A stretch of 64,000 nucleotides of DNA from Legionella sp. (GTDB taxonomy: Bacteria; Pseudomonadota; Gammaproteobacteria; Legionellales; Legionellaceae): the NCBI GenBank assembly GCA_009995425.1, contig JAACPN010000005.1, positions 55,349-119,348 of the forward strand. Direction: 5' to 3'. Under the pieces are notes generated by a model, which had not been told where the DNA came from, made no database searches, and saw only the letters and a program-made list of their open reading frames with translations. The translations under genes and the position numbers were made by a program. Shown here one piece after another: positions 2,355 to 21,129 of the stretch. How positions within the stretch are numbered: position 1 is the first letter of the stretch; every line of letters starts with the position of its first letter.

Positions 2355-5278
2355 TGGACAAATCACTCATAGCACTGACCGATGCTTTAAAAAAAGTTTT
2401 AGTTGGATTACAACCCAACCAAAATAACCTGTCGTTTATCCTGCTTATTGGCAAGGCGGGACAAGGCAAAGCGACATTACTGCGTCATAATACACACAAA
2501 AATATCACCATTCATGCCGAGCGCACCGCTGAAATTTATTATAATGCCCAAGGCATTATACTTGAACTTGACGAAACTTGGAGTCAGCAAAGCACCGGCG
2601 TCCTAGCGCAAGCGTTAAAGCAGTTGAATCAATGTCATCGCGCGCTGAAAATTACGGGCCTTCTTTTAGTGGTTGATATCAACGAACTGATTATTCATTC
2701 ACCGACAGAGTTAACCCAAAATACACAAAGCCATGCCCAATTGCTGCAACGCTATGGGCGTGCACTGGGTTATGTGGTTGATACCGGATTTATTTTTACA
2801 AAACTGGATAGCTTGGCTGGTTTTTGTGATTTTTTTCAACATGATAAACGACTTGATCAACACAAACCGCTTGGATTTTCTATCGACTGGGGGCAAAAAA
2901 AAGGAAAACTTGCGCATAATTATCACGCGCGTTTTGAATACTTGTTGGAATCTTTAAGCCAAGATATGCTCCAAAAGGTGCATCCTGTGCGCTCCAGCCT
3001 GAAACGTAGTTTGATTCGAGAATTTCCACTACAACTGGCCAATTTTCAGTTTGCAATCGAAAGCCTGCTGAAACAAATATCCCCTAAACATTGCCGCGTT
3101 TGCGCTATTTATTTTACGAGTGCCCGACAAGGCGGCATGAGTGCTGATCATCTCAATCAAAAAATTTGTCATGAATATGCTTTAACCTTGCCCACACAAA
3201 TACCTCAGTCGAGCAATGATCGCGCGTATTTTATAGAGGGTGCGTTAGATGCATTTCAACGCCAAACCTACTATACCGCACCACGCCCTGCCGTCGCTCA
3301 AAAATACGTGGTGAGAACTGCATCGTGCTTGGTCGGATTTGCTATTGCATTGATCGTGCATCACCATGTTGCCTCATCACGCGTGCTGGATAACGTCACC
3401 CAAGAGCTTTTAGCGTATGACAGCTTAAACAAACAGACCAATAAGCAAAACAACGCGCTGTTTCACTTATCAAAAGCTGCTGATGCTCTCATGCAAATTA
3501 AACTCAATCGTTTATCACCACCCGCACTTCAACAACTTCACGCACGCATTGATTTTACGTCAAAACAACATGTGAACAACGGCTTTTTACCTCAAACGCT
3601 AAGAAGCCTTGAACATGTGCTGCGTGATCCTGAACAAAACACGTCCGCGCGTTATCATGCTTTAAAAATTTACATCATGTTGGGCGATCCGTTTAAACGT
3701 AACCCGGATGAAATGATCAACTGGTTTCAACACTATTGGCAAAAAAACAGTACCGCCGAAGAGCTACCCCGACAGATTGAACTTTTAAATAAAACCCTGA
3801 TTACACCCAAACAAGCGCTTGCTATTAATCAACAACTGGTACGTGATATTCGCGCCTACCTCAATGCCATACCAGCAGGTTATCTCTATTATTCGCTGCT
3901 GAAAGAAAGTTTTTCTACCGAGACAAAAAAACTTCATTGGGATGGCTTTAATTTGGGTGCAACCGAGGTTCCGCTGTATTTTTTAAAAACAGGATTTCAA
4001 CAAACCAGCTTAAATATTCCTTACGCAGCATCACAGTTTCAACTCGACAACTGGGTTTTAGAACGTCAGGATTTAGACAACTTATCCCATTTACTCGAAC
4101 AAGCCTACGCTTATGATTATTTCACATGGTGGAAGCAATTTATTAAGCATACCTCACCGCATCCTATTCAAAATTATACCGAAGGACAACGCCTGCTCAG
4201 CCTCTTTGATCAAGCCGATACACTTCGTGATCTCACGCATTTTATTCAAGCTCAAACCAGCCCCGATGTTGAACATCAAAACACCGTATTCAACCAACAC
4301 GTTGCAAGTCACTTTACCCACTTGAGCTTGGTGAGTGAGGCTGGACTACGTGATTTAGCGCTTGATATACGCGAAATACGCCAGCTATTAAATACCCTCA
4401 CCGTGGTTCAAGATGAAGGACAAACGGCCTTTAGGCTAACTAAGCAACGGTTTCTGAACACAGGATCTCGTCATGCACTCTCAACGCTCTATGCCAACGC
4501 AAAACAACTGCCTGAACCGGTTGCATCGTGGACGGAACAAATCGCAGATGATACGTGGTTTTTATTACTCAGTGACACCAAGCAATACGTGAATAGGGCA
4601 TGGTCGCAACAGATCCTTCCTGAATATCAACGTACGATTGCGCATCGTTACCCACTGGATGCAAACGCTTCAGAAGACATCGCACTCGCTGATTTTAACC
4701 ATTTTTTTGCACCCCATGGCGTACTCAATACCTTTACTGAACAATATATTAAACCATTTTTAGATACCTCACAGCCTGAATGGACGCGACAAGAAGCCGA
4801 CGGCCATGTTCTACCGATTCAGCAAGATATGATTCAAGCTTTCGTGCACGCAAACGTGATCACCGCCATGTTTTTTCCTGATGAACATGCATCAAGCCAA
4901 ATTAATTTTAGTTTACAAAAAATCGACTTAGATCCCATCATTGCCGGGCTTGAACTTTCTTTAGGTAGTCGACGTCTTCGCGACACACAAAATACGGATG
5001 CTGCAACTGATTTTATTTGGCCAGAATCCAATGCAGAGCTCATTTTGCATAGCATTGAAGGCAAACACTATGAACTCTCGGAAAAAGGCCCTTGGGCTTT
5101 ATTTAAAATCTTACAAAAATTCAATATTACTCTGGATGATAACGACGGTTCAAAACTTCAGGTTTTATTTGAAATCAACGGTGATTCAGGGCACTATTTA
5201 CTTCAAGCTAAGAGCGCACTGAATCCGTTTACACCAGGTATTTTAGCTGGTTTTAAATTAAAAGACCGTGTTGCCTAA
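2354..5278 (+). CDS. icmF: IcmF (TssM-like) component of the Dot/Icm system
   Basis: 974 aa, close to my recollection of the L. pneumophila IcmF length. N-terminal Walker A-like LLIGKAGQGKATLL. TM segment (CLVGFAIALIVHHHV). Translationally coupled to icmH. Confidence 0.85.
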   Translation: MDKSLIALTDALKKVLVGLQPNQNNLSFILLIGKAGQGKATLLRHNTHKNITIHAERTAEIYYNAQGIILELDETWSQQSTGVLAQALKQLNQCHRALKITGLLLVVDINELIIHSPTELTQNTQSHAQLLQRYGRALGYVVDTGFIFTKLDSLAGFCDFFQHDKRLDQHKPLGFSIDWGQKKGKLAHNYHARFEYLLESLSQDMLQKVHPVRSSLKRSLIREFPLQLANFQFAIESLLKQISPKHCRVCAIYFTSARQGGMSADHLNQKICHEYALTLPTQIPQSSNDRAYFIEGALDAFQRQTYYTAPRPAVAQKYVVRTASCLVGFAIALIVHHHVASSRVLDNVTQELLAYDSLNKQTNKQNNALFHLSKAADALMQIKLNRLSPPALQQLHARIDFTSKQHVNNGFLPQTLRSLEHVLRDPEQNTSARYHALKIYIMLGDPFKRNPDEMINWFQHYWQKNSTAEELPRQIELLNKTLITPKQALAINQQLVRDIRAYLNAIPAGYLYYSLLKESFSTETKKLHWDGFNLGATEVPLYFLKTGFQQTSLNIPYAASQFQLDNWVLERQDLDNLSHLLEQAYAYDYFTWWKQFIKHTSPHPIQNYTEGQRLLSLFDQADTLRDLTHFIQAQTSPDVEHQNTVFNQHVASHFTHLSLVSEAGLRDLALDIREIRQLLNTLTVVQDEGQTAFRLTKQRFLNTGSRHALSTLYANAKQLPEPVASWTEQIADDTWFLLLSDTKQYVNRAWSQQILPEYQRTIAHRYPLDANASEDIALADFNHFFAPHGVLNTFTEQYIKPFLDTSQPEWTRQEADGHVLPIQQDMIQAFVHANVITAMFFPDEHASSQINFSLQKIDLDPIIAGLELSLGSRRLRDTQNTDAATDFIWPESNAELILHSIEGKHYELSEKGPWALFKILQKFNITLDDNDGSKLQVLFEINGDSGHYLLQAKSALNPFTPGILAGFKLKDRVA

Positions 5279-5656
5279 TAACTTTTTGAACAAAGCCTTA
5301 ATGCTCACTCAATAAACATATGATCTCATTCAATCTTGTTTGTTAATTAATCAATACGGTGCTTATTGCTTACTCCCGATCAAATATCCCAGCTTGTCCT
5401 TATGATAAGTCGTACGTTTTCAGCTCAACAGGCTCTCCCTCAGACAACGAAAACATTGACACACTAAAAAAACAGGCCCTCGCGCTCAAAAATGAAAATC
5501 CATGTTGATAAATAAGCGTCATGTTGAAGATATGGCCATGGGCTTTAGCGTGATCACCCTATGAATTCAGTTACAATGGGTTAAGAAACAACGCCCCCTT
5601 AGAGAAATTTTTGTGTCGTTTGTATGTTATAGATCTAGATTGATGGCGCCATTTCG

Positions 5657-6572
5657 TTAATCCAATAGTGATAGGGGAATGGCCCAGAGATTATCCCCAA
5701 ATGACAAACATTCACTTCCATTATAAAGAACTATACCTGAAATCCACTTTTTATCAGCTAGCGTAGCGAGTTTTCTTAAGCCACGGAAATCTTGATCAAA
5801 AATCGTGTAACTTGATTTAACTTCGATACCTATAATCTTACGTGCATGATTTTCCAGAATAAAATCTACTTCCACTTGGTCTTTATCACGATAGTAATAA
5901 ATGTTCCATGGCTCATCAACTAGCGTACACATTTTCAATAATTCGCTATATACCCAAGTTTCTAATAAAGCCCCAAAAGAAGATTTATCCGTTTTAATAC
6001 TTTCGTGTGTATGTCTGTTCAGACAGGCTAGAAGACCACTGTCAATAAAATAGATTTTTGGTGATTTAAGGATTCTGCTTAAATTATTATCATGCCATGG
6101 CTTTAATTGATGCACTAAAAATAATGTTTCAAGTAAACCAACATACTTTTGCGCTGTTTTAGTATCCAATTTTAATTGCCCGCCAATTTGAGTAAAATTG
6201 ATCAGTTTACCTGATTGCTGTGCCAGCACCTCAAGTAAACGAGGCATTTCAACTAATTTTTCTATTGATGAGATGTCTTTAACGTCTCGTTCTACGATTG
6301 CTTTTATATAAGATTTAGCCCAAGCATTTCGCCGCTCAAAATATGATTACTTTATCGATTCGATTAACAAAACCAACAGGATCTTGCTTGACAGCATTGA
6401 GTATATTGTCATCATCCAACGTGTAGTAAGGTAAGGGCGGTGAGTACTCTTTGACTAAAGTTATCTTTCCTGATTGCCGAGGACCAATAACTAAAACAAC
6501 GGGTGTATCCTTCATGGCAATTTCCATTCGATTTTTAAGCTGTCTTGGAAAATTATTTGTATTCATATTCAC
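5657..6572 (-). pseudogene. Decayed AAA-ATPase (AAA_14 + DUF4143 type) gene: internal deletion plus frame change
   Basis: The 78-aa N-terminal ORF has the P-loop (VLVIGPRQSGKITL) and stops inside the Walker B strand (DKVIIF*). The 196-aa C-terminal ORF continues upstream in another frame as ..FERRNAWAKSYIKAIVERDVKDISSIEKLVE-MPRLLEVLAQQSG.., the typical DUF4143 entry. About 100 aa expected between the two parts are missing. Confidence 0.6.
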
Positions 6573-6589
6573 AGAGGCATCCTAAGTTT

Positions 6590-6624
6590 CGTCCAATATG
6601 GATTTCAAGCGCGTCCAATATGGA
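6590..6624. repeat. Two copies of the 13-bp direct repeat CGTCCAATATGGA, 22 bp apart, just upstream of the decayed ATPase gene
   Basis: Exact copies at 6590-6602 and 6612-6624. Each has a CCAATATGG near-palindromic core. They lie 18-52 bp upstream of the ATG at 6572. Confidence 0.5.
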
Positions 6625-6773
6625 ATACAAATAAATAGCATCTTTAATATAGCGTACAAAAAATGGCGACATGATGAAAAAAAAGAGATGGTATCATCTG
6701 AATCATTCTTTGCTGTCTTGATCATGGCGTGATGAAGTAGGCCAGCGGCATAAGCTGCTGGCTTTAGATCCGA

Positions 6774-8270: not shown

Positions 8271-9372
8271 GGTTACTTACTCCTGCCTTTAAACTGGCTT
8301 CAATAAATAGGTCTAAATCGCCATCAAGAACGGCTTGTGTGTTACTCGTCTCAACACCGGTTCGCAAATCTTTGATACGTGATTGATCGAGCACATACGA
8401 ACGAATTTGAGAGCCCCAGCCAATATCTGACTTGCTTGCCTCGAGTGTGGCCTGCTCTGCCAGCTGCTTTTGTTGCTCATGTTCATATAATTTGGCACGT
8501 AATTGCTTCATGGCTTGATCTCTATTCTTATGCTGACTTCTGTCGTTCTGACACTGCACCACAATATTCGTAGGTATATGTGTGATTCGAATAGCGGAAT
8601 CGGTCTTATTTATATGCTGCCCACCTGCGCCCGAGGCGCGATAGGTATCAATGCGTAAATCAGCAGGATTAATCTCAATTTCGATATCATCATCCACTTC
8701 AGGCGAAACAAACACCGATGCAAACGATGTATGACGACGATTACCCGAATCAAACGGTGATTTTCGTACCAAACGATGAACCCCCGTCTCGGTACGTAGC
8801 CAACCGTAAACATAATCCCCAGTCATCTGAATGGTTGCACTTTTGATGCCGGCCACATCACCCGCTGAACATTCAAGTAAGCTCACATCAAACCCATGCT
8901 GCTCACCCCAACGTAAATACATGCGGAGTAATATTTCGGCCCAGTCTTGTGCTTCGGTACCACCCGAGCCCGATTGAATATCAATAAAAGCATTGGATGC
9001 ATCCTGCTTACCTGAAAACATGCGTCTAAATTCCAACCCTTCCACTTCTTTTTGAATGTTCGTAAGGTCTTCCGCAAGCTCATGAATCGTTTGTTCGTCT
9101 GATTCATCACGTGCCATCTCAAATAAATCTTTTAAGTCAACGACACTCGATGCCAACGCATGAATTTTCACCACCACCGACTCGAGCTGTGCCCGCTCAC
9201 GCCCTAAGGCTTGTGCTTTCTCAGGATTGTCCCAAATACTCGGCAGCTCAAGCTCACGGGTTACTTCCTCCAGGCGTTCGGCCTTAACGTCCAGCTCTAA
9301 ATATTGGCTCAATGCTGTAATACGTTTTGATAAATCATCCAACGTCAGATTGACTTGATTCACTTCTAACAT
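8263..9372 (-). CDS. prfB: Peptide chain release factor 2
   Basis: 369 aa. GGQ motif ([19 protein letters not shown]) and SPF tripeptide ([16 protein letters not shown]). The reading frame is uninterrupted from the first ATG. Confidence 0.95.
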
Positions 9373-9454
9373 AACGCCCCTTGACGTGTTGCAATAGCTT
9401 GATTATAAACGCTGACCAACGAAAATACGCTACATTATGACAGATAAATCCAGA

Positions 9455-10204
9455 TTAATCTTGAATACGCGATCGAATACGATGCGTCGCTTGACCATGC
9501 AGTTGTGAAACACGCGACTCACTCACATCGAGTAAATCACCAATCTCTTTAAGATTCAGCTCATGCTCATAATAAAGTGATAATACTAAACGTTCTTTTT
9601 CAGGTAGGCCATCAATAATTTCAGTCAATTGCCTTTTGAAATCATCTTTCATCACACGGTCTTGTGGCTCAGGCAAGGCCGCTGCTCCTTCACTTTTAAG
9701 TGAGTCATCGGTGACACCTAAATCATCAAAGCCGTACAAATGCGCACCGGTCGCATCACTCAAGATATGATGGTATTCTTCAAGACTGACCCCAAGCTCT
9801 TTGGCCACATCACTATCTTTTGCATCACGATTCAACGTGTTTTCTACTTTACGCACGGCTTCAGAAATCATACGTGCGTTGCGATAAACCGAACGCGGCA
9901 CCCAATCATTTCGGCGCACTTCATCCAGCATATGTCCACGAATACGAATACCGGCATAGGTCTCAAACGAAGCCCCTTTGCTGTCATCATAGCGCATCGC
10001 CGCTTCCAGTAAACCGACCATACCGGCTTGCATTAAATCCTCAAGCTGAATGGAGCGTGGCAAGCGCCCTAACAAATGATAGGCAATCCGCTTAATTAAA
10101 AGCGTATGCGTTCGCACCAACACTTCTTTAGCCTGTGCATTCAATTGATGATTGACACAGCTATTGCCTAATTCAGGCTCTTTGAGGTCATCCCTATCCA
10201 TCAA
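9455..10204 (-). CDS. fliA: RNA polymerase sigma-28 factor FliA
   Basis: 249 aa. Sigma-70 family regions 2 to 4 (EDLMQAGMVGLLEAAMRYD; YAGIRIRGHMLDEVRRNDWVPRSV; LNLKEIGDLLDVSESRVSQLH), typical of FliA. Confidence 0.85.
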   Translation of the reverse strand: MMDRDDLKEPELGNSCVNHQLNAQAKEVLVRTHTLLIKRIAYHLLGRLPRSIQLEDLMQAGMVGLLEAAMRYDDSKGASFETYAGIRIRGHMLDEVRRNDWVPRSVYRNARMISEAVRKVENTLNRDAKDSDVAKELGVSLEEYHHILSDATGAHLYGFDDLGVTDDSLKSEGAAALPEPQDRVMKDDFKRQLTEIIDGLPEKERLVLSLYYEHELNLKEIGDLLDVSESRVSQLHGQATHRIRSRIQD

Positions 10205-10310
10205 GTACGCTCGCTGTTATCTTAAAATACCTTATAAAAACAGTATTGACTATAATAGCAGTCCTTGCAATGCGCGTGCATGAAAATTAGGCCGGGGGGA
10301 ATGTTTAACG

Positions 10311-11921
10311 TTATACTGGTATTGGAAGCGGTTCTTTGCCATTTTCTTCAGCGATTGCAAACTGCCTAACTTCTTTTAGATATTCCTTTTCTTGTGTTGC
10401 AAAATATCCACAAAGTCCAATAGAGCCCGTTACAATTGGCAAAATAGAGGCCGTCATTGCTGAAGCCCCGACACTTGTTACCGGTATACCAGCTAATTTG
10501 GCAAAAACACTCGTCATAGGTAGCGCCCAGTGCATTAAACTGGGTAATAGCGCCAGGCCGTTAATTGGCGAGCATAGTAAACTACCTAGGATTATCATCG
10601 TGATTGTAAACATACAAAAACCGAGAAATATTTTATGCCAAAAATCACGCCTTGCATCTATAAAATTAACAGTTTCAATTAATGCATTTAAATTATCTTT
10701 ATGCTCCTCTAAAAAATAGTACGGTCTTTGCATACGAGGATATTCTGAATGATAAATCGTATCAAAGTTTATTGATAACCTCATTCTTTCAAGTATTTCA
10801 CTGGCAGCTATAAAATCAGAAATATGTTTTTCTGTTGCAGAATAGGTAAGTTCAAAATCGTTGTTATCAGTATTGCACTGTGCCGCAAGAACTTTGTCGG
10901 AATCCATGTTTTTTATTATTTGCTTCAGTAGATTGAATGACTTAAATTTAAGGCTTTGTGGTGTATTTAATAATTGCTCATCCCAATAAGTAATCGTGTC
11001 TTGCATTAAAGAGCGTTGAACAAGATAATTTTCTACTTGCCTGCCCAAGTCGGGCAGATTAAAACCATATGTTTTTTCTTTGACACTTGAATATGAAACA
11101 ATTTTTTTATCACATAATTCAGCAGCACATCCATATGTAATAAAATGCTCGTTTTCAAATAGACGCTCATGTTCATTTTTAAAAAAAACATTTGTCGCTC
11201 TATAGGTGTCCTGTTGATTATTAAGCCTACTTAAAATATGGTTAGTGTAGGGCGCGGTAAAATCACCTACTTCTGGCGCAGGAAAACGACATACTGCCTT
11301 TTTTTCTTCTTCTATATCGTCTAGAAAAAAGGAAATTGATTCATCTAGAGCGGTATATAATGCTTCGTAATTTAAGTTTTTAACTAGCTGTAAAGCCGTC
11401 ACCCTCGTGGTATCTAATAAATAGCCTCTTATATTGCTTGCTCGGCGTGACGTAAAATCGAGTTCTCTTAAGCAAAAAACCAATGAAATTGATCGATGAG
11501 AGGCAAATCTAGATAAATATTTATACTCGAATTCTCCAGGGGTAATTCGGTTGTAGTTTAATTTCGCTCCATAGTCATGCATGGTTTCTGAATGCATGAT
11601 TTCTTCGAGCTGCCATCCATGTTGGGTTGCTTCTGTGTGTATTCTCAGCACAAATCCTTTTTCAGTGGTATGTCCTGCTTTTGATGTAACATCTAAAATT
11701 TCATTGACGAAATTAATATCTTCTATTTTGTTAGATAAATCAGTCAAATCAATGTTACCTGGTAGAGTGATTGCTTCCTGCATGCCTTGAGTAAAATAGG
11801 TTTTATTTGCATCATCCAAATACACGCAATCTTTCTCTGCGTTGCTTAAATCATCAAACAGAGACGACATTAATTTCAGACGAGATCTGTCCCACATTAA
11901 ATTATGCATTAAACGATCCAT
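10311..11921 (-). CDS. Hypothetical membrane-anchored protein (effector-like); 3-prime major part of a gene split by a MITE
   Basis: 536-aa ORF with no recognised family. C-terminal hydrophobic hairpins (IFLGFCMFTITMIILGSLLC..; ILPIVTGSIGLCGYF) followed by a Glu-rich tail (AIAEENGKEPLPIPV). The frame stays open 14 codons upstream of the Met, up to the MITE. Confidence 0.6.
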   Translation of the reverse strand: MDRLMHNLMWDRSRLKLMSSLFDDLSNAEKDCVYLDDANKTYFTQGMQEAITLPGNIDLTDLSNKIEDINFVNEILDVTSKAGHTTEKGFVLRIHTEATQHGWQLEEIMHSETMHDYGAKLNYNRITPGEFEYKYLSRFASHRSISLVFCLRELDFTSRRASNIRGYLLDTTRVTALQLVKNLNYEALYTALDESISFFLDDIEEEKKAVCRFPAPEVGDFTAPYTNHILSRLNNQQDTYRATNVFFKNEHERLFENEHFITYGCAAELCDKKIVSYSSVKEKTYGFNLPDLGRQVENYLVQRSLMQDTITYWDEQLLNTPQSLKFKSFNLLKQIIKNMDSDKVLAAQCNTDNNDFELTYSATEKHISDFIAASEILERMRLSINFDTIYHSEYPRMQRPYYFLEEHKDNLNALIETVNFIDARRDFWHKIFLGFCMFTITMIILGSLLCSPINGLALLPSLMHWALPMTSVFAKLAGIPVTSVGASAMTASILPIVTGSIGLCGYFATQEKEYLKEVRQFAIAEENGKEPLPIPV

Positions 11922-12381: not shown

Positions 12382-12963
12382 TCAGGATGAAGGAAAGTTT
12401 AACGTTGCACTGGCATTTGAAGTACACATTTGCGTTGCATCAACACAGGTAATCGCAATAGGTGCTGGTGTTGTGTTGTTCGACCACGTCACCACGTTAC
12501 TTAATGCCGCAGAGGGTGATGTGTTTGTACCAACAGTATACGTAGGATATTGAGCGGGTGTTCCCTGCAAAATGCCTAACTGAACGCACCAAGTTCCCGC
12601 ACCATTGCCTGGCGTCGTGGGTGCTGGACCTGAATTTTGCGCAGCTTCATACAGATAATTCATCATCATGCTATACACATAACCTGCGCCCAATGGCGCA
12701 GACGCAGAAGGATTCAATGTCATATCGTTTGACCACATGGCCCCGTAAAGATCACCATGATTATCAAAGTAAGATGTCGTGCAATCCGCTTGAAAAAGTT
12801 GTTGAATAAAGACGCCTGTGATCGTAAACATTTGGGCTTCAGAAGAATTCCGAATGGTTATAGAAGATAGTGAATCACCCAGCCTCCTGTCAAAGAATGC
12901 AGCATGCGCTATGTCTATAAAAAAAACACTTATACCTATCGTGATCAAGAAAATTTTTTTCAT
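12382..12963 (-). CDS. Secreted protein of unknown function, paralog A (4 conserved Cys)
   Basis: 193 aa with a signal peptide (MKKIFLITIGISVFFIDIAHA). It aligns with the neighbouring ORF: LSSITIRN / C / GAMWS / GAGYVYSMMMNYLYEA / TWCVQLG / ITCVDATQMCT. Confidence 0.7.
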   Translation of the reverse strand: MKKIFLITIGISVFFIDIAHAAFFDRRLGDSLSSITIRNSSEAQMFTITGVFIQQLFQADCTTSYFDNHGDLYGAMWSNDMTLNPSASAPLGAGYVYSMMMNYLYEAAQNSGPAPTTPGNGAGTWCVQLGILQGTPAQYPTYTVGTNTSPSAALSNVVTWSNNTTPAPIAITCVDATQMCTSNASATLNFPSS

Positions 12964-12990
12964 GCTCGTCCATTTAGGTTTTAATAAAAA

Positions 12991-13614
12991 TCAAGGCCGC
13001 TGATGTGGAAAAGGTTGCGGTTGAATGATATCTGTTGTAGTGCATTGCCTCGTTGAGTCATTGCAAATAATATTTGTAAAACTTATGGGAAGATCGCCCT
13101 CGATATACTGCACCAATTGATTGGCATTCTCTAACGCGCCATTTGTGCTTGTTAAAGTACCGGTACCTACGGTTTGATTGGTGACGCCTAACCACACACA
13201 ATAGGTATTACCGCCATTAAAAGAACCAGGCGTACCCAAAGCTCCATGCCCATCAATATGTGCTTGATACAAAAACATCATGATCATATTGTACAAATAA
13301 TTCGCGCCAATATTTCTCGTTTCATTCGTCGCCATCGTCACTTTCGGCGACCAAAGCGCACCAAAAGGAGCCCCCTCACTTTCAATCAAGGGCGTTAAGC
13401 AAGCATTTCCAGCACCCTCACCTAGCACGAACAAATAAATGCCCGTAACCGTATCTTCAGCACCAATATTTTGAATGCTTATCTGTGAAAGTGTGGCAGA
13501 AAGTATATCTCTTGACGTCATGAATTCAGTATTTTTAGAATTTAACATGGGAGGCGAAGCCAAGACCAAATGTGGTATAAGCAAGAATAGAAAAACCCAT
13601 GGCTTTATCATCAA
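12991..13614 (-). CDS. Secreted protein of unknown function, paralog B (4 conserved Cys)
   Basis: 207 aa with a signal peptide (MMIKPWVFLFLLIPHLVLAS). It shares blocks with paralog A: LSQISIQN / C / GALWS / GANYLYNMIMMFLYQA / TYCVWLG / IICNDSTRQCT. Confidence 0.7.
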   Translation of the reverse strand: MMIKPWVFLFLLIPHLVLASPPMLNSKNTEFMTSRDILSATLSQISIQNIGAEDTVTGIYLFVLGEGAGNACLTPLIESEGAPFGALWSPKVTMATNETRNIGANYLYNMIMMFLYQAHIDGHGALGTPGSFNGGNTYCVWLGVTNQTVGTGTLTSTNGALENANQLVQYIEGDLPISFTNIICNDSTRQCTTTDIIQPQPFPHQRP

Positions 13615-13684
13615 AATATGACTACATTAGATTGCATGAACTGATGTTATCATCGTTATTTTCGTTCCGCAATGAACTGACTGG

Positions 13685-15595
13685 ATGCTTATGAGTGCGA
13701 TTGGTGCAATATTTTCGATTCAAAACAAACCGATTGACGAAGCATCGCTGCAAGCATTGCATCATGGCATGGCTCGTCATGGAAAACATGGTTCAAACAC
13801 CTGGTTTTCGAACACGTGTGGGCTAACACAACAAAGCTACTACCACACATTAAGCACACAACTCGCGTCCTTTCCATATTTTGATAAAAAGCACAACATT
13901 GGCCTTGTTGCTGATGTTCGCTTATCGAATCGAACTGACCTGCACAAATCACTTCACGCCTCTTTTTCACATCAATATTCCGATGCTGAACTTATTATAT
14001 TGGCTTATTTAACATGGGGTATCGATTTTATACTCCATTTGGTGGGTGAATTTAGTTTAATCCTCTGGGACACAAAATTACATCGTTTCGTGGTTGCTGT
14101 GGATCACTTTAATACCCGGCCACTTTATTATTTTTTTAATCAAGATTTTCTGATCATTTCAAGCGTGCTTTCTGCCTTACATCATGTGCCGTGGGTACCA
14201 CGAGAACCTAATTTAAGTGTGATTGCACGACATGACTTTAAACGTTTTTTATTAGAACCCGGTGAAACATGCTTTAAACATCTTTATTTTTTACCACCGG
14301 CCAATCTTTTAATTGCTGATCCCTCGGGTATAAAATTTCACACGTACTGGCGTCCAACGTTAGGAGCGCCTTACGCTTTTAAATCAGATAACGATTTCCA
14401 AGAAGCCTTTCACGAGCATTTTTCAAACGCCGTGCATGCAACGGTCGATACCGACCGTCCTGTTTGCTTACAATTGAGTGGCGGTTTAGATTCTTCTGCA
14501 ATTGCACTTATGGCGGCTAACGTGCTTGGTTTTGAACAAAAGAAATTAATTTGCTTGTCCAACGTTTTGCCTCCTAATAGCCATGATAGCCTAAACGACG
14601 AACATGAATACATCGATTTAATCCATGCACCAAACCTTATCAAAGAAACCGTGATCGACCCATGGCGAGGGCCTTTTGATCATTTGGATGCATGCAAAAC
14701 ACACTTGTACACCAGTCCGCAACATTACCAGCACCGCGCGATCAACGCTGCGGCAAGGCGTCATCAAGCATCTGTTGTGTTACATGGCACACTTGCAGAA
14801 CTCACCACCAGTTATTCTGGCCACGAGCGCTTATCTGAGCTGTTCCATCGCTTACATTGGATAACGTTGATCCGCGAGCTTTTTGCTCACCGTAAAATTT
14901 ACAAAACATCGTCTCTATCGCTTGCCGCTTTGGTCATACACCCCAAAATTCTCCACGGATATCTTAAAAAACGACAGCACAGTACGCGCCAAAAATTACT
15001 GACAGCGAGCTTAATCAACCCAACATTTATTTTAGAGCAGATGACGCCCGATGCGTTGATGTGGCTTGAGCAACAGTTTTTAAAACCTTTGATTTTACAC
15101 AGCATGAATGCCCGTAAAAACGCCCTGATCCAGATAGAATCTCACCTAAGACATGCCAGCACCTTGTTTACCCAACTGGATGATGGAATTGATTCAGCTC
15201 TTTATTTTAGTAATCCTTATTTTGATAAACGCTTAGTCGAGTTTTGCCTCAACATTCCGAACGCCTATCGCTTTAGGCATGGCTATCCTCGCAGTATTAT
15301 TCGGCTAGGCATGCAAAAATATTTACCCAAAGCCATTGGCCAGCGCATCACAAAATCGCCTTTTTTACCTGATTATCATGTGCGCTATCATCAGCATATG
15401 TCAAAAGCACGGGAGGCTATCGAAGCCGTCCAATCACATCCTTTAGTACAACATGTGATTGATGTACCGCGCTTGTTATCATGCCTCAACACCCCTTCGT
15501 CTTCTCATGCACTCAGCACAGAAACAAACTTTTTAAATTACTATGTGATCCCACAAGCCGTTTATTTAGCTGTCTTTTTGTCTTCGTTTAGCTGA
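13685..15595 (+). CDS. Asparagine-synthetase homologue of the lasso-peptide cyclase (McjC-like, C protein) type
   Basis: 636 aa. The N-terminus MLMSAIGAIF lacks the Cys2 nucleophile of glutamine-hydrolysing AsnB. PP-loop ATP pyrophosphatase motif VCLQLSGGLDSSAIAL. Adjacent to PqqD-like and HPrK-like genes. Confidence 0.75.
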   Translation: MLMSAIGAIFSIQNKPIDEASLQALHHGMARHGKHGSNTWFSNTCGLTQQSYYHTLSTQLASFPYFDKKHNIGLVADVRLSNRTDLHKSLHASFSHQYSDAELIILAYLTWGIDFILHLVGEFSLILWDTKLHRFVVAVDHFNTRPLYYFFNQDFLIISSVLSALHHVPWVPREPNLSVIARHDFKRFLLEPGETCFKHLYFLPPANLLIADPSGIKFHTYWRPTLGAPYAFKSDNDFQEAFHEHFSNAVHATVDTDRPVCLQLSGGLDSSAIALMAANVLGFEQKKLICLSNVLPPNSHDSLNDEHEYIDLIHAPNLIKETVIDPWRGPFDHLDACKTHLYTSPQHYQHRAINAAARRHQASVVLHGTLAELTTSYSGHERLSELFHRLHWITLIRELFAHRKIYKTSSLSLAALVIHPKILHGYLKKRQHSTRQKLLTASLINPTFILEQMTPDALMWLEQQFLKPLILHSMNARKNALIQIESHLRHASTLFTQLDDGIDSALYFSNPYFDKRLVEFCLNIPNAYRFRHGYPRSIIRLGMQKYLPKAIGQRITKSPFLPDYHVRYHQHMSKAREAIEAVQSHPLVQHVIDVPRLLSCLNTPSSSHALSTETNFLNYYVIPQAVYLAVFLSSFS

Positions 15596-16404
15596 GCATC
15601 TAACCACGTGCCGAATTCATCAAAACACGCCAAATTATCTGGACGCGTTAATTGATAACACGGAATGGCGCTCGCCATGTGCGTCACGTGCTGCAAGTGT
15701 AGGTTTAATTTTCCAAGCGCTTTTAACATAGAATAACGGTAGGTATTTCTAATAAGCAATTGGATTTTATCGAAGTTGTATACCGGGGTTTCTTTGATTA
15801 TACCCTGACGATTGTCTACATGTAATTCATACACACGACTGATTTGAATCGGATGCTTCCACGCATGTTCAATGGGTAATTCAAACTTACCCGGTCGATG
15901 ACTAATCGGTTGAAGCGCGTCGCTTGACTTACCTAAATACGCAAGCGTATCTGTCCAAAGTTTTGCGCTTGTTGACATGGGCATAAGCTCCATCTGCTGG
16001 TCATGAAAACGAACAACGGCTAAATCATCCGTTAAAAACGGATAACCTTTTTGGTTCATGGTGGCAGCCAACGTTGATTTACCTTGTCCTGATGGGCCAC
16101 AGAACAAAACTGCTTGCCCATGCACAACAATTGCCGAGGCATGTAACACTAAAAAATCATGATATTGAAGTAAGTAGGCTAAAACCGTGCCATTAAGCCA
16201 GGTTAAAACGAGCTTAGGTTCACGTAAAGCAGGATCCATATCAATAAAAATGGTATTACTTTTTGCGCATACCTCATAACATGCAACATCTTTAATTTTA
16301 AAAAAAAATCGCGCTGCGTCACAATAATAATGCGTAGATGCATCTGGAAAGTTGATACGCTTATGTTTTAATACAATGTTCAACCCGAACGATTCTTTTA
16401 ACAT
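15562..16404 (-). CDS. HPr-kinase-related P-loop kinase (lasso-precursor Ser kinase type)
   Basis: 280 aa. LHASAIVVHGQAVLFCGPSGQGKSTLAATMNQKGYPFLTDDLAVV matches the HPrK/P C-terminal domain signature (LHG..V...G.G.L..G.SG.GKS..AL.L...GH.L..DD). Its 3-prime end overlaps the cyclase 3-prime end by 34 nt. Confidence 0.75.
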   Translation of the reverse strand: MLKESFGLNIVLKHKRINFPDASTHYYCDAARFFFKIKDVACYEVCAKSNTIFIDMDPALREPKLVLTWLNGTVLAYLLQYHDFLVLHASAIVVHGQAVLFCGPSGQGKSTLAATMNQKGYPFLTDDLAVVRFHDQQMELMPMSTSAKLWTDTLAYLGKSSDALQPISHRPGKFELPIEHAWKHPIQISRVYELHVDNRQGIIKETPVYNFDKIQLLIRNTYRYSMLKALGKLNLHLQHVTHMASAIPCYQLTRPDNLACFDEFGTWLDAQLNEDKKTAK

Positions 16405-16494
16405 CTTTATTTATTATACCTTGATGGGTAAATTGTCAAAAGCAGACAACCCAGTTAGAATAAATCCATACTAATGTAACGTAAATGCTTTGAT

Positions 16495-16941
16495 ATGAAT
16501 ATAGACTCAACAACCTTACTTAAAAAAGCAACGTCTTGCATTACTGAAGCAGATTTCGGGCATGAAACCGTCCTTCTTCACCTTGAAGATGGAAACTATC
16601 ATTGCATGAATGCCACCGCTTCTTTGCTTTGGGCGTGGCTAAATGAGCCCATCTCTTCTTCTTCCCTACATCAACGATTAGTCCGTGAATTGGGATATCA
16701 GCCAAGTCACGCGGACACCGAGATTTTTCAATGGGTCAACGATGCCTTAGCCAACAAACTACTCGAATTAGTTTCTCCACGTGCGTTTGAAGGATCTGTT
16801 GCAATCACAGAACAGAGCATGGATAACCAGCAACCCATCACGCATTATAGTTCGCCCAAAACAACCTTATTTGACGTGCTAACCATCACACAAGGCAATA
16901 GCACCGATTTTCAAACCGATAATTTAGAAACAGGATCATAA
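16495..16941 (+). CDS. PqqD-like RRE protein (lasso B1 type) carrying a 55-aa C-terminal extension that looks like a lasso precursor
   Basis: 148 aa. Residues about 5-92 have PqqD-family size and pattern (ETVLLHLEDGNYHCMNATASLLWAWLNEP.S...L...L). The tail is ..MDNQQPITHYSSPKTTLFDVLTITQGNSTDFQTDNLETGS*. Confidence 0.7.
   Translation: MNIDSTTLLKKATSCITEADFGHETVLLHLEDGNYHCMNATASLLWAWLNEPISSSSLHQRLVRELGYQPSHADTEIFQWVNDALANKLLELVSPRAFEGSVAITEQSMDNQQPITHYSSPKTTLFDVLTITQGNSTDFQTDNLETGS
16819..16941 (+). other. Candidate lasso precursor peptide (25-aa leader + 15-aa core GNSTDFQTDNLETGS), in frame within the PqqD-like ORF
   Basis: From the internal Met at 16819: leader MDNQQPITHYSSPKTTLFDVLTITQ with a YxxP motif and Thr at -2. 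The core (16894-16938) starts with Gly, has Asp at position 9 and ends in Ser. No convincing SD precedes the internal ATG, so independent translation is uncertain. Confidence 0.45.
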
Positions 16942-16964
16942 CGATTCACCAAGGATGTGTTAAC

Positions 16965-17666
16965 ATGAAAACAATCATTATTGCGATAGCCGGCGCATCC
17001 GGTTCAGGAAAAACCACCGTCGCACGAAAAATTCATCAACATTATGGTGATGATCAATGCCTCATCCTTTCTTCCGATAATTATTACAAAGACCAACGTC
17101 ATCTTTCACAAACAGAACGAGATAAGCTTAACTTCGATCATCCTGATAGCCTTGATTTTGAACTTCTGGCACATCATCTCCAGTTGCTGAAACAAGGTGA
17201 AAGCATTGACATGCCCACCTATGATTTTGAAACACATGCCCGTCAAGAACAAACCGTTCGTATTTTACCCAAGCCCATGATGATTATCGAAGGTATTTTG
17301 ATTTTACATCCCGCATGCCTCACGCGCTTGTATGATACAAAAATTTTTGTGGATGCCGATGCTGATGTATGCTTGGTACGACGTCTTCGACGCGATATCA
17401 CAGAACGCGGAAGAGCTATGGGAGACATCTTGACGCAATACATCCGGGACGTAAAACCTATGTTTCATACTTATGTCGATCCGTGTAAAGCTTCTGCTGA
17501 TTTGGTCATTAATACCACAAATTTTTGTGATATCACGCCTGTAGTTATGCATATCGATCATAAAACCGAGACAGCACAACGCGTAGATTTAAGTTTTTTT
17601 GCACACGCACATGCTATGACGCCTCAAGCTGAAATATACCAAGGGGATTATACCTATTGGTCTTAA
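16965..17666 (+). CDS. udk: Uridine kinase family P-loop kinase
   Basis: 233 aa. IAIAGASGSGKTTVA P-loop, NFDHPDSLDFELL and PTYDFETH blocks typical of Udk. It starts 24 nt after the stop of the PqqD/precursor ORF. About 20 aa C-terminal extension. Confidence 0.8.
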   Translation: MKTIIIAIAGASGSGKTTVARKIHQHYGDDQCLILSSDNYYKDQRHLSQTERDKLNFDHPDSLDFELLAHHLQLLKQGESIDMPTYDFETHARQEQTVRILPKPMMIIEGILILHPACLTRLYDTKIFVDADADVCLVRRLRRDITERGRAMGDILTQYIRDVKPMFHTYVDPCKASADLVINTTNFCDITPVVMHIDHKTETAQRVDLSFFAHAHAMTPQAEIYQGDYTYWS

Positions 17667-17801: not shown

Positions 17802-18902
17802 ATGAAAATAATCAAACTCACGCTATTTATGATAGCCATTTTCTTCTGTGGATTTTGTCATGCTCATGATGCCCGATCAATATTTTATCAAGCATTCGAT
17901 TTTGCAAAAAATGAATCAGCATTTAAAGACAATATCGATTGGAATCAAATTGAAGAAAAGGGACTCGCGTTTATTGGAGATAAGCCGCTAGCTTGCCGTG
18001 GTATTTCAGCAATTAGTCATATTTTAGCACCCGAACTATTTAAATATGATTACCATACGTTTGTCACTGAAAATGGTTTAGACAGTGGTGAATGTCCTTT
18101 GTATAAGCCCCATGAAATAAGTGATTATTGGCACGATTGGGTTCAATTAAGCACGGTTAGAAGAGATTTTATTAAAAAAAAGATCGAGACCTTTTGGGGT
18201 AAACGATTTGGCGATATTGCATATATCTATATACCCAGCGGCTTTGCCTACAATGATGATGAAATAGAGGCAAGGATTCGCGAAGGAAGAAGTGTTGTTG
18301 ATAGCTTAAACCTTGAAACTGCAACGGGCATAATTGTTGATTTTCGCCTTAATACTGGGGGAAATTACGTCCCGATGCTGATGAGTCTTGCTAAAATAAT
18401 CAATCCTGCGACCCTATTTAAATATACACATGGAGAGAGCATAAGAATATCAGAAGATGGTAATACCCTCTTATCTTTAATACCTGGTGAACAAGAAGAA
18501 ATACTCTATAAAATAAGCTACCTCCCTCCGGTCAACCGAGTGAACCTACCCATCGTAATTTTAATCGATGAGGGAACAGCTAGCTCTGGGGCTATCGCGG
18601 CTTTCGCCCTCAAAGAAAATTCAAGTACGAATCAGTTATTAGGCGAAAAAACCAATCCGAGCCTATCCGTGAATGCAAGCTTACAATTAAACGATGGTAA
18701 CTATTTTAACTTGATGATCTTGAGAATTTTATCACCAACAGGTCTAGAGCAACCGCTATATCTAGACAGTGACATCCATGTAAAACATGATTTTTTCTCA
18801 ATATTTAGCACCAAGGATGAAAGTATTATACAAGGTATTAATTTAATAAGAGATCGGGTTAGGCGAAATACACGTGGAGAGCGTTATGTCCTTAAATCAT
18901 GA
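17802..18902 (+). CDS. Secreted S41-family (C-terminal processing) peptidase-like protein
   Basis: 366 aa with a signal peptide (MKIIKLTLFMIAIFFCGFCHA). S41-like blocks: IIVDFRLNTGGN and PIVILIDEGTASSGAIAAFAL. Confidence 0.6.
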   Translation: MKIIKLTLFMIAIFFCGFCHAHDARSIFYQAFDFAKNESAFKDNIDWNQIEEKGLAFIGDKPLACRGISAISHILAPELFKYDYHTFVTENGLDSGECPLYKPHEISDYWHDWVQLSTVRRDFIKKKIETFWGKRFGDIAYIYIPSGFAYNDDEIEARIREGRSVVDSLNLETATGIIVDFRLNTGGNYVPMLMSLAKIINPATLFKYTHGESIRISEDGNTLLSLIPGEQEEILYKISYLPPVNRVNLPIVILIDEGTASSGAIAAFALKENSSTNQLLGEKTNPSLSVNASLQLNDGNYFNLMILRILSPTGLEQPLYLDSDIHVKHDFFSIFSTKDESIIQGINLIRDRVRRNTRGERYVLKS

Positions 18903-20449: not shown

Positions 20450-20707
20450 ATGACCATAACAACGATTAGCAGCAGAGAATTCAATCAAGACGTTAGTAAG
20501 GTAAAACGTGCGTCTTCACGTGGCCCTGTCTTTATTACTGACAGAGGCCGACCGGCGCACGTTTTATTAACAATAAAAGATTATCAAAATCTTACAAAAA
20601 CAAAAGAGAGTATCGTTGAACTTCTAGCCATGCCTGATGCGGCTAACATTGATTTTGAACCACCCAAATTAAATAAGACACTTTATCAAAAAGAGGACTT
20701 GAAATAA
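20450..20707 (+). CDS. Type II antitoxin, Phd/YefM family
   Basis: 85 aa. The opening ISSREFNQDVSKVKRASSRGPVFITDRGRPAHVLLTIKDYQNL is typical. Its stop overlaps the start of the PIN toxin gene. Confidence 0.8.
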   Translation: MTITTISSREFNQDVSKVKRASSRGPVFITDRGRPAHVLLTIKDYQNLTKTKESIVELLAMPDAANIDFEPPKLNKTLYQKEDLK

Positions 20708-21129
20708 TGTATCTACTGGATACCAACGTGATTTCTGAGTTAAGAAAAGCAAAATCAGGAAATGCCCATGAAGGCGTCATTTCATGGGCTAACAGCATCC
20801 CCGTATCTAACCTTTTTTTGTCGGTTATGACTATTTTAGAGCTTGAAACCGGTATATTACAGATAGAGCGGCGTGATGTATCTCAAGGATCCGTCTTACG
20901 AACATGGCTTTCCATGCATGTTTTACCAGCATTCAATGATCGCATTTTGCCTCTCGACACGGCTGTTGCAGCACGCTGCGCAAGACTCCATGTCCCTAAT
21001 CCAAAATCAGATAGAGATGCAATCATCGCAGCAACAGCTTTAGTTCATGGGATGACCGTTGTTACACGAAACGTTGCTGATTTTGATAAAACAGGCGTAG
21101 ATATCATAAATCCTTGGGGATCTGATTAA
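20707..21129 (+). CDS. vapC: Type II toxin, PIN-domain VapC family
   Basis: 140 aa. MYLLDTNVISELRK N-terminus. Conserved acidic residues (D5, E..; DAIIAATALVHGMTVVTRNVADF). Confidence 0.85.
   Translation: MYLLDTNVISELRKAKSGNAHEGVISWANSIPVSNLFLSVMTILELETGILQIERRDVSQGSVLRTWLSMHVLPAFNDRILPLDTAVAARCARLHVPNPKSDRDAIIAATALVHGMTVVTRNVADFDKTGVDIINPWGSD

Follow-up and report, generated by a model that had tools for sequence, protein, structure and literature searches.

A probable kinase-type lasso peptide system in a Legionella genome, with the precursor encoded as the tail of its own recognition protein

How can a lasso peptide be made from a gene set that shows neither a precursor gene nor a leader peptidase? 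The question is raised by a compact locus in a 64,000-nucleotide stretch of Legionella sp. DNA (assembly GCA_009995425.1, contig JAACPN010000005.1, positions 55,349 to 119,348; hereafter the window, to which all unlabelled coordinates refer). An earlier note, made from the letters alone, had recognized here three abutting genes for a lasso-type peptide that is made by the ribosome and modified after translation (RiPP): an asparagine synthetase-like cyclase, an HPr kinase-like protein and a PqqD-like protein. We recovered the three open reading frames (ORFs) where they had been placed, at 13685-15595 (+), 15562-16404 (-) and 16495-16941 (+), with the 34-nt overlap at 15562-15595 and all of the quoted motifs (MLMSAIGAIF, SGGLDSS and GPSGQGKSTL...LTDDLAVV). 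The precursor, absent from that account, occupies the last 32-40 residues of the PqqD ORF, in the same frame. Our reading, to which we give a probability of roughly 0.65, is that the region 12382-16941 is a kinase-type (paeninodin-like) lasso system whose precursor and RiPP recognition element (RRE) are made as one polypeptide, with the precursor as its C-terminal end. Its biosynthetic features are:

13685-15595, plus strand: putative lasso macrolactam synthetase (C protein) of the Asn-synthetase fold, 636 aa (PF00733, NF033535, SGGLDSS)
15562-16404, minus strand: putative HPr-kinase-like RiPP kinase (K), 280 aa, convergent to the cyclase gene, with a 34-nt overlap (PF07475, TIGR04352)
16495-16779, plus strand: RRE domain (PqqD-like, B1-type), aa 1-95 of the fusion ORF (PF05402; lasso B1 structures)
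16780-16842, plus strand: variable linker, aa 96-116, holding an in-frame ATG at 16819
16843-16893, plus strand: leader segment HYSSPKTTLFDVLTITQ, with the YxxP recognition motif, Thr(-2) and Gln(-1)
16894-16941, plus strand: core GNSTDFQTDNLETGS, 15 aa and stop; predicted are a macrolactam between Gly1 and Asp9 and a phosphosite at the C-terminal Ser

The precursor is fused to the recognition element

The third ORF (16495-16941, plus strand, 148 aa) had been described as a PqqD-like RRE protein, a description that is right for residues 1-95 and leaves out the rest. The RRE part passes the PF05402 (PqqD) model at 28.9 bits against a gathering score of 23.4, reaches 31.6 bits with lasso_PqqD_Bac (under the cut-off of 80), and has as its closest solved structures by sequence the lasso B1 chaperones 9x90_B (1.4e-4) and TbiB1 5v1u (5.4e-4). 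The PqqD domain stops near residue 95 and the ORF extends for another 53 residues, ending in HYSSPKTTLFDVLTITQ followed directly by GNSTDFQTDNLETGS, i.e. the protein consists of RRE, linker, leader and core. Several features mark this tail as a lasso precursor: a YxxP leader, Thr(-2), and a core with Gly1, Asp9 and a C-terminal Ser. YxxPxL with Thr or Ile at -2 is the rule for (phosphorylated) lasso leaders (PMC10368454), and a C-terminal Ser is that of kinase-type lasso peptides (PMC9266682).

The same fused ORF is present in seven relatives whose cyclases are 43-85% identical to that of the window, which gives eight fusion loci in all. Two close relatives carry it as the same single ORF (87% and 78% identical), and in the five remoter loci (L003, L005, L173, L004 and L174) the cyclases are 43-55% identical. 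In an alignment, the fusion ORFs share the RRE, the linker and the pattern [YF]xxPx[TLF]...[TI][QH]/G...TDN[LF]x[TM]GS followed by a stop codon (the slash marks the leader-core junction). Gly1, T-D-N and the terminal G-S are unchanged in 8/8 of them, and the acceptor Asp is found at core position 8 or 9, inside the range known for lasso peptides, whose cores have Gly, Ala, Ser or Cys at position 1 and Asp or Glu at position 7-9. The linker is far more variable, with lengths between about 8 and about 40 aa. A ninth locus, L172, with a cyclase 50% identical, carries instead a free 55-aa precursor with the same leader and core, YTPPELTIFSANEITH followed by GNSNHGIDNFSTGS, which retains G1, D-N and G-S and has IDN in place of TDN. 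The leader and junction motifs ([YF]xxPx[TLF], then [TI][QH]/G) are kept in all 9 loci.

Three lines of evidence show that the tail is a real, translated fusion. The linkers of L003 and L005, from the RRE up to the leader motif, contain not a single Met, and the precursor can therefore be made there only as a fusion. The free precursor of L172 shows that the fusion tail is homologous to a genuine precursor gene or module. Lastly, substitutions between the window and L001 are unevenly spread over the ORF: 19 synonymous and 13 non-synonymous in the RRE domain, 4 and 17 (plus an in-frame 3-nt indel) in the linker, and 10 and 2 in the leader and core together, of which 6 and 2 fall in the leader and 4 and 0 in the core. 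The fused leader and core are under purifying selection. We rejected the idea of a nested precursor gene that starts at the in-frame ATG at 16819 (40 aa), which is impossible in L003 and L005 with their Met-less linkers; in the window, an internally initiated 40-aa product from this codon may be made in addition.

For comparison we used a set of 166 control lasso loci (2.2 Mb), which came from profile scans with the cyclase-clade alignment in genome and metagenome contigs and were reused as negatives. The cyclases from these collection scans were at most 28% identical among the matches listed (generic motifs). None of the 107 control loci that have an RRE showed an RRE ORF with such a C-terminal tail, and full-text literature searches for a natural RRE-precursor fusion returned only engineered tags. 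The RRE-fused precursor is the most unusual feature of the locus.

Cyclase and kinase

The 636-aa protein matches PF00733 (Asn_synthase; 1.9e-24, 87 bits) above the gathering score, and a GATase_7 domain was also detected. Given that both domains are found and that the public annotation reads asparagine synthase, one could take it for an ordinary glutamine-dependent asparagine synthetase with coincidental neighbours. We consider this almost certainly wrong. The lasso cyclase model NF033535 is its top NCBIfam hit (283 bits, below the curated cut-off of 525) and scores double the AsnB model TIGR01536 (137 bits, cut-off 267), with PRK09431 at 79 bits (cut-off 499); the protein groups with lasso cyclases, and its gene is always linked to those for precursor, kinase and RRE. 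Moreover, its N-terminus, MSAIGAIF, has a Ser where AsnB has the Cys2 nucleophile, while the SGGLDSS PP-loop is unchanged in 18 members of the cyclase clade, i.e. the lasso-cyclase configuration that the earlier note had described. An MSAI.GI N-terminus is common to annotated lasso cyclases, even far outside the clade, and for this reason the true start is probably at 13691, as in the NCBI call (634 aa) and in all 17 relatives. We also considered whether Ser2 could act as an N-terminal nucleophile (Ntn-type) that substitutes for the B2 leader peptidase, an idea that was rejected because MSAI.GI is found in the cyclases of B2-containing loci as well.

Of the three Pfam models against which the earlier note had wished its proteins to be checked, the cyclase and RRE pass theirs, and the kinase stays below its own (PF07475, Hpr_kinase_C, 27.7 bits against 33.3). 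It also scores under the cut-off with TIGR04352 (HprK_rel_A; 53 bits, cut-off 200), a family for which a literature search on the HPr-rel-A system gave nothing. It can be aligned with HPrK/P 2qmh over the P-loop and the Asp-Asp motif, and the upstream His (LH), the Walker-A Lys (GKS) and Asp-Asp are unchanged in 8/8 kinase orthologues. The combination His-Lys-Asp-Asp is the signature of lasso-tailoring kinases (PMC9266682).

As to its target, PadeK, ThcoK and PsmK phosphorylate the C-terminal Ser of the precursor (PMC9266682, PMC6993621), and it is Ser3 that is phosphorylated in the Bsf and Lpp systems (PMC10368454, PMC13381572). All 9 precursor modules of the clade terminate in G-S followed by a stop codon. 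The sole invariant Ser of the cores is the C-terminal one; positions 2 and 3 are without Ser in the L002 core, GNNADFQTDNLETGS. This pattern of conservation favours phosphorylation at the C-terminus, as in paeninodin, over that at Ser3.

The convergent 3' overlap of cyclase and kinase genes is itself kept across the clade, at 34 nt in the window (15562-15595) and 9-34 nt in the relatives (L001, 9053-9086; L003, 5742-5772; L005, 6574-6607; L173, 4357-4371; L004, 7928-7936), and may reflect transcriptional interference or antisense coupling.

Leader peptidase and exporter

The apparent lack of a B2 leader peptidase, a transglutaminase-like Cys protease (PF13471), was examined with a hidden Markov model (HMM) built from 120 B2 sequences and run in six frames, unfiltered (--max), at E<=0.01. 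No match was obtained in the 64-kb window, bearing out what had been read from its ORFs, nor in L001 (20 kb), L002, L003, L005, L172 and L173. The same model matched 111 of the 166 control loci, from many phyla, as well as two deeper-branching relatives that both have the fusion gene, L004 (two copies) and L174. In a neighbour-joining tree of the cyclases a single subclade holds the B2-positive loci, and the other subclades are made up of B2-minus ones. Likewise, no dedicated ATP-binding cassette (ABC) exporter was seen among the neighbours and the larger window ORFs scanned, which agrees with the earlier reading; a resistance-nodulation-division (RND) pump about 4 kb downstream of the locus is part of the syntenic backbone.

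There are precedents for such economy. A B-less kinase-type cluster of cyclase, precursor and kinase has been published, as has lasso formation without B1 or B2, and for pseudomycoidin housekeeping proteases were shown to free the core (all PMC6993621); triculamin is another B-less example (PMC12070363). Within the window, an S41-family peptidase with a signal peptide (17802-18902, plus strand), two genes downstream of the fusion ORF, was tried as a candidate for leader removal. It is not at the equivalent position in L002, L003, L005 or L173, and is probably unrelated to this step.

Some further loci show other arrangements. Among the control loci L012-L171, 9 of the 78 ordinary kinase-type loci of at least 8 kb (about 12%) have no detectable B2 in their flanks, and B2-less kinase-type lasso loci may be commoner than assumed. 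At 2715-5854 of L004, the RRE-precursor fusion has as neighbours a pair of B2 genes, one further PqqD that is short (92 aa), and an NTP_transf_5 gene; here two lasso systems may have merged, or the region may be an evolutionary intermediate. Finally, L175 (7164-10467; cyclase 31% identical) consists of a ScmC/HprK-like kinase, a 43-aa precursor ending in GGGGGPDFASELS, a cyclase and a major facilitator superfamily (MFS) transporter, with neither RRE nor B2, and resembles the published B-less Stanieria cluster.

A family of secreted proteins accompanies the locus

The earlier note had also overlooked two paralogous genes upstream of the cyclase:

12991-13614, minus strand: secreted orphan, paralog A, 207 aa, with signal peptide and conserved Cys
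12382-12963, minus strand: secreted orphan, paralog B, 193 aa, with signal peptide

A Sec-type signal peptide and four conserved Cys are common to both, and the family is represented beside the system in 9/9 clade loci, even where the gene order changes: in L004 and L173 the secreted genes are found downstream of the kinase rather than upstream of the cyclase (8959-10302 and 5380-6684, respectively), L005 has its member at 3329-4627, and in L174 it is located at the contig end. In L172, an 8.8-kb contig with neither kinase nor RRE and with its free precursor at 4547-4714 (+), the secreted protein is a tandem-duplicated 433-aa form (4768-6069, minus strand). The family is tiny, with 45 representative clusters among 1.84 billion proteins, and gave 0 matches in the 166 control lasso loci. 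Paralog B is nonetheless the most conserved protein of the neighbourhood, being 70% identical to its L004 and L173 orthologues, compared to 45-46% for the cyclase, 36-41% for the kinase and 31-35% for the fusion.

Searches with these proteins against Pfam, PHROG, NCBIfam and PDB revealed no homology; a profile of 33 members did not change this, nor did scanning each of the 33 against Pfam, and a cluster look-up returned no names. An AlphaFold2 (AF2) model of a secreted paralog was too poor to be of use (pLDDT 46, from a two-sequence alignment), and in Foldseek searches against PDB gave only matches with E>1. From the linkage, paralog A is likely a functional partner of the system, and the association suggests a receptor, carrier or immunity factor as the role of the pair.

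Proposed pathway and product

The following route would account for the gene set. The 148-aa protein would fold as a PqqD/B1-type RRE, and its flexible linker would let the RRE bind the YxxP leader (segment HYSSPKTTLFDVL) of its own or of a partner chain. The docked complex would recruit the HPrK-like kinase, which is predicted to phosphorylate the invariant C-terminal Ser15 (Ser148 of the fusion); B1 is known to speed up lasso kinases (PMC10368454). The leader-core bond Gln133-Gly134 would then be cut, either by a B2 encoded elsewhere in the genome or by a housekeeping protease as for pseudomycoidin, and the cyclase would adenylate the Asp9 side chain and join it to the freed Gly1 amine. The predicted product is a 15-residue lasso or lariat with a 9-membered ring and a 6-residue tail, which the phosphate may help to lock, and each RRE molecule would be spent along with its substrate. 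The two secreted proteins would take part as receptor, carrier or immunity factor. Calculated [M+H]+ values are 1585.661 for the linear core, 1567.651 for the macrolactam and 1647.617 for the macrolactam with one phosphate (a shift of +79.966 Da).

A number of points weigh against this reading. The product is a predicted one. With the lasso-specific NCBIfam models, the proteins score far under the curated cut-offs (cyclase 283/525, RRE 31.6/80, kinase 53/200), and we therefore regard cyclase, RRE and kinase as divergent members of their families. The AF2 model of the fusion (pLDDT 38, from a three-sequence alignment) is too poor to serve as structural support for docking in cis, and the linker of L003, only about 8 aa long, bears on the same issue. 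A tail of 6 residues is very short for threading and the product may be an unthreaded lariat; the only bulky residue in the tail is Leu/Phe11, with no other large plug. A phosphorylated C-terminus has been speculated to act as a lock in pseudomycoidin (PMC6993621), and by analogy may be the topological lock here. No exporter was identified among the window ORFs scanned and, without a B2, the locus itself offers no enzyme for the release of Gly1. The B2 search in the home genome covered 64 kb of a 704-kb contig. Finally, the contrast in B2 content, which in itself speaks for the reading (when only kinase-positive loci of 8 kb or more are compared, 69 of the 78 controls (88%) have a clustered B2 versus 2 of 7 clade loci), has a Fisher p = 0.001 that overstates independence because the B2-minus clade loci are kin.

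Alternative explanations

The alternative that deserves most attention leaves the lasso system as it is and has the leader removed by a canonical B2 encoded elsewhere in the genome, perhaps shared with a second, canonical locus, so that the locus would be split and not B2-independent. We regard this as a real possibility, if one that falls short of an even chance. B2b-type peptidases 50-73% identical to the clade B2 are common in Legionellales-like metagenomes and metagenome-assembled genomes (MAGs), canonical lasso loci exist in Legionellaceae, and the deeper-branching L004 and L174 retain B2 beside the fusion gene; in the B2-minus loci, too, the features of the leader by which B2 recognizes it ([TI](-2) and YxxP) are still under purifying selection. 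However, the contig of the window is not among the 120 B2 matches listed (there are 267 further matches), and no B2 lies in the flanks of any of 7 clade loci, examined over up to 64 kb, a peptidase that in 88% of ordinary kinase-type loci is found in the cluster.

Absence of the peptidase and exporter, along with the sub-threshold profile scores, would also be expected from a decaying remnant that has lost both and makes no product. This is very improbable. All ORFs are intact in at least 8 loci with cyclase identities from 43 to 100%, the catalytic motifs are unchanged, the B2-minus loci are found on several branches of the cyclase tree, and the comparison with L001 (4 synonymous and 0 non-synonymous changes in the core, 6 and 2 in the leader) is not that of a gene set adrift. 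Somewhat less far-fetched, though still improbable, is that no lasso is ever released: kinase and cyclase would modify the C-terminus of an uncleaved 16.5-kDa RRE-tail protein, e.g. by phosphorylation and a side-chain amide or ester link, and this protein would work together with the secreted ones. A locus devoid of leader peptidase and exporter and a very short tail after Asp9 would fit such a protein, and a module of HprK, RRE and NTP-transferase does work outside lasso chemistry (PMC13381572). Yet the same core occurs in L172 on a free precursor of 55 aa, and a B2 accompanies the fusion in L004 and L174, from which it follows that cutting at [QH]/G is ancestral; Gly1, invariant at this junction, is sensible only as a new N-terminus, and the cyclase belongs with those of lasso peptides.

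The kinase-type lasso system with a fused precursor hence remains our preferred reading. A more daring version of it, which we offer tentatively and hold to be rather unlikely, is a self-chaperoned precursor whose RRE is consumed stoichiometrically while recruiting kinase and cyclase, with no dedicated peptidase, and whose phospho-lasso or lariat would form with the secreted pair a ligand and its receptor or carrier, and not an antibiotic, in intracellular bacteria of the Legionellales type.

Relation to known systems

Judged by its gene content, the locus has the lasso cyclase, RRE, precursor and kinase, lacks a B2 in the cluster, and does not have its precursor as a separate gene. It is closest in kind to the paeninodin-type loci (reviewed in PMC9266682), with which it has in common a cyclase related to Asn synthetase, a discrete RRE domain of the PqqD type, an HPrK-like kinase bearing H-K-D-D, and a precursor whose C-terminal Ser is conserved and whose core has Gly1 and Asp8-9; the earlier assignment to this kind is upheld by the profiles of cyclase, kinase and RRE and now by the precursor. 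It differs in the fusion of precursor and RRE, in the absence from the locus of B2, ABC exporter and NTP-transferase, in a much shorter core (15 aa with a 6-aa tail) and in the linked orphan secreted family. Pseudomycoidin (psm; PMC6993621) is likewise of the kinase type, its cyclase can act without B1 and B2 with host proteases freeing the core, and C-terminal Ser phosphorylation has been proposed as the topological lock for a short, unbulky tail; B1 and B2 genes, however, are still present in the psm cluster. In the B-less Stanieria cluster (PMC6993621) there are only cyclase, precursor and kinase and no RRE, whereas the window keeps the RRE and attaches it to the substrate. The Bradymonadales Bsf system (PMC10368454) is also proteobacterial and kinase-type, with a YxxPxL leader, a B1-accelerated kinase and an Ile(-2) that matches most relatives of the window locus. 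It has separate A, B1 and B2 genes, and BsfK targets core Ser3, unlike the window clade, in which there is no conservation of Ser2/3 and the C-terminal Ser alone is kept throughout.

A RiPP core as the C-terminal tail of a folded domain is not new in itself. In borosins the core is fused to its own N-methyltransferase (PMC8429565), and NHLP/Nif11 precursors have protein-like leaders (PMC12537861); in both, the folded part aids its own maturation or recognition. In those cases the fused part is a catalytic enzyme or a nitrile-hydratase-like leader and not an RRE, and they belong to other RiPP classes. The LPP RiPPs of Bacillota (PMC13381572) share the module of HprK-like kinase and RRE, with a leader peptidase that is exchangeable, but have a SpI-like peptidase, an MsbA-like exporter and an NTP-transferase and no macrolactam synthetase, whereas the window has the cyclase; no S26/SpI, NTP_transf_5 or ABC domains were found in the window neighbours scanned.

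Host and flanking genes

The genome is Legionella-type, as the window encodes DotU, IcmF, DotG-like and DotL-like proteins. It had been suggested that such a host is itself unusual for lasso peptides, which proved not to be the case: Legionellaceae/Legionella MAGs hold canonical lasso loci with B2, short PqqD and cyclase, accompanied by a kinase, NTP-transferase, sulfotransferase or ABC exporter, and NCBI already labels them as lasso. The lineage is therefore not exceptional, and the locus described here is a derived one. What makes it interesting is the RRE fusion together with the secreted proteins dedicated to it, more than the lack of B2 on its own or the lineage of the host.

The fragment 13685-17666, which had been put forward for heterologous expression, does contain the lasso genes and also takes in a genuine uridine kinase (udk; 248 bits, cut-off 180). 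We considered udk as a component of the system and rejected it, given its absence from the equivalent position in L002, L003, L005 and L173. Scans for promoters and terminators gave nothing above chance, and an Rfam scan of the sequence found nothing.

Several neighbours merit mention for their own sake. A 536-aa ORF at 10311-11921 (minus strand), between a FliA-type sigma gene and the secreted paralogs, has no family match and a hydrophobic C-terminus; the syntenic L001 lacks it, and it may be an effector-like gene particular to this lineage. A Phd/YefM-type antitoxin paired with a PIN-domain (VapC-like) toxin is encoded at 20450-21129 (plus strand), in the stretch that separates the locus from the RND efflux operon, at which place L001 carries ParD/ParE. 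Further away, 51568-55605 (minus strand) encodes a 1345-aa DotG/TrbI-like protein with a very long decapeptide-repeat region (PF25296, 877 bits, 14 stretches).

Implications

Lasso mining tools seek a short free-standing precursor gene and usually a B2 too. In the databases, loci of the form described here are annotated merely as "asparagine synthase / hypothetical / PqqD family protein", and they are likely to be missed by lasso genome mining. A natural fusion of RRE and precursor would be a ready-made system in which to compare leader recognition in cis and in trans; it could show what purpose an RRE serves in a system that has no B2, and whether the substrate can carry its recognition element as a part that is used only once. 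That a very rare and highly conserved secreted family is so strictly linked to the locus, in turn, provides a handle on the role of lasso peptides in a host-associated lineage.

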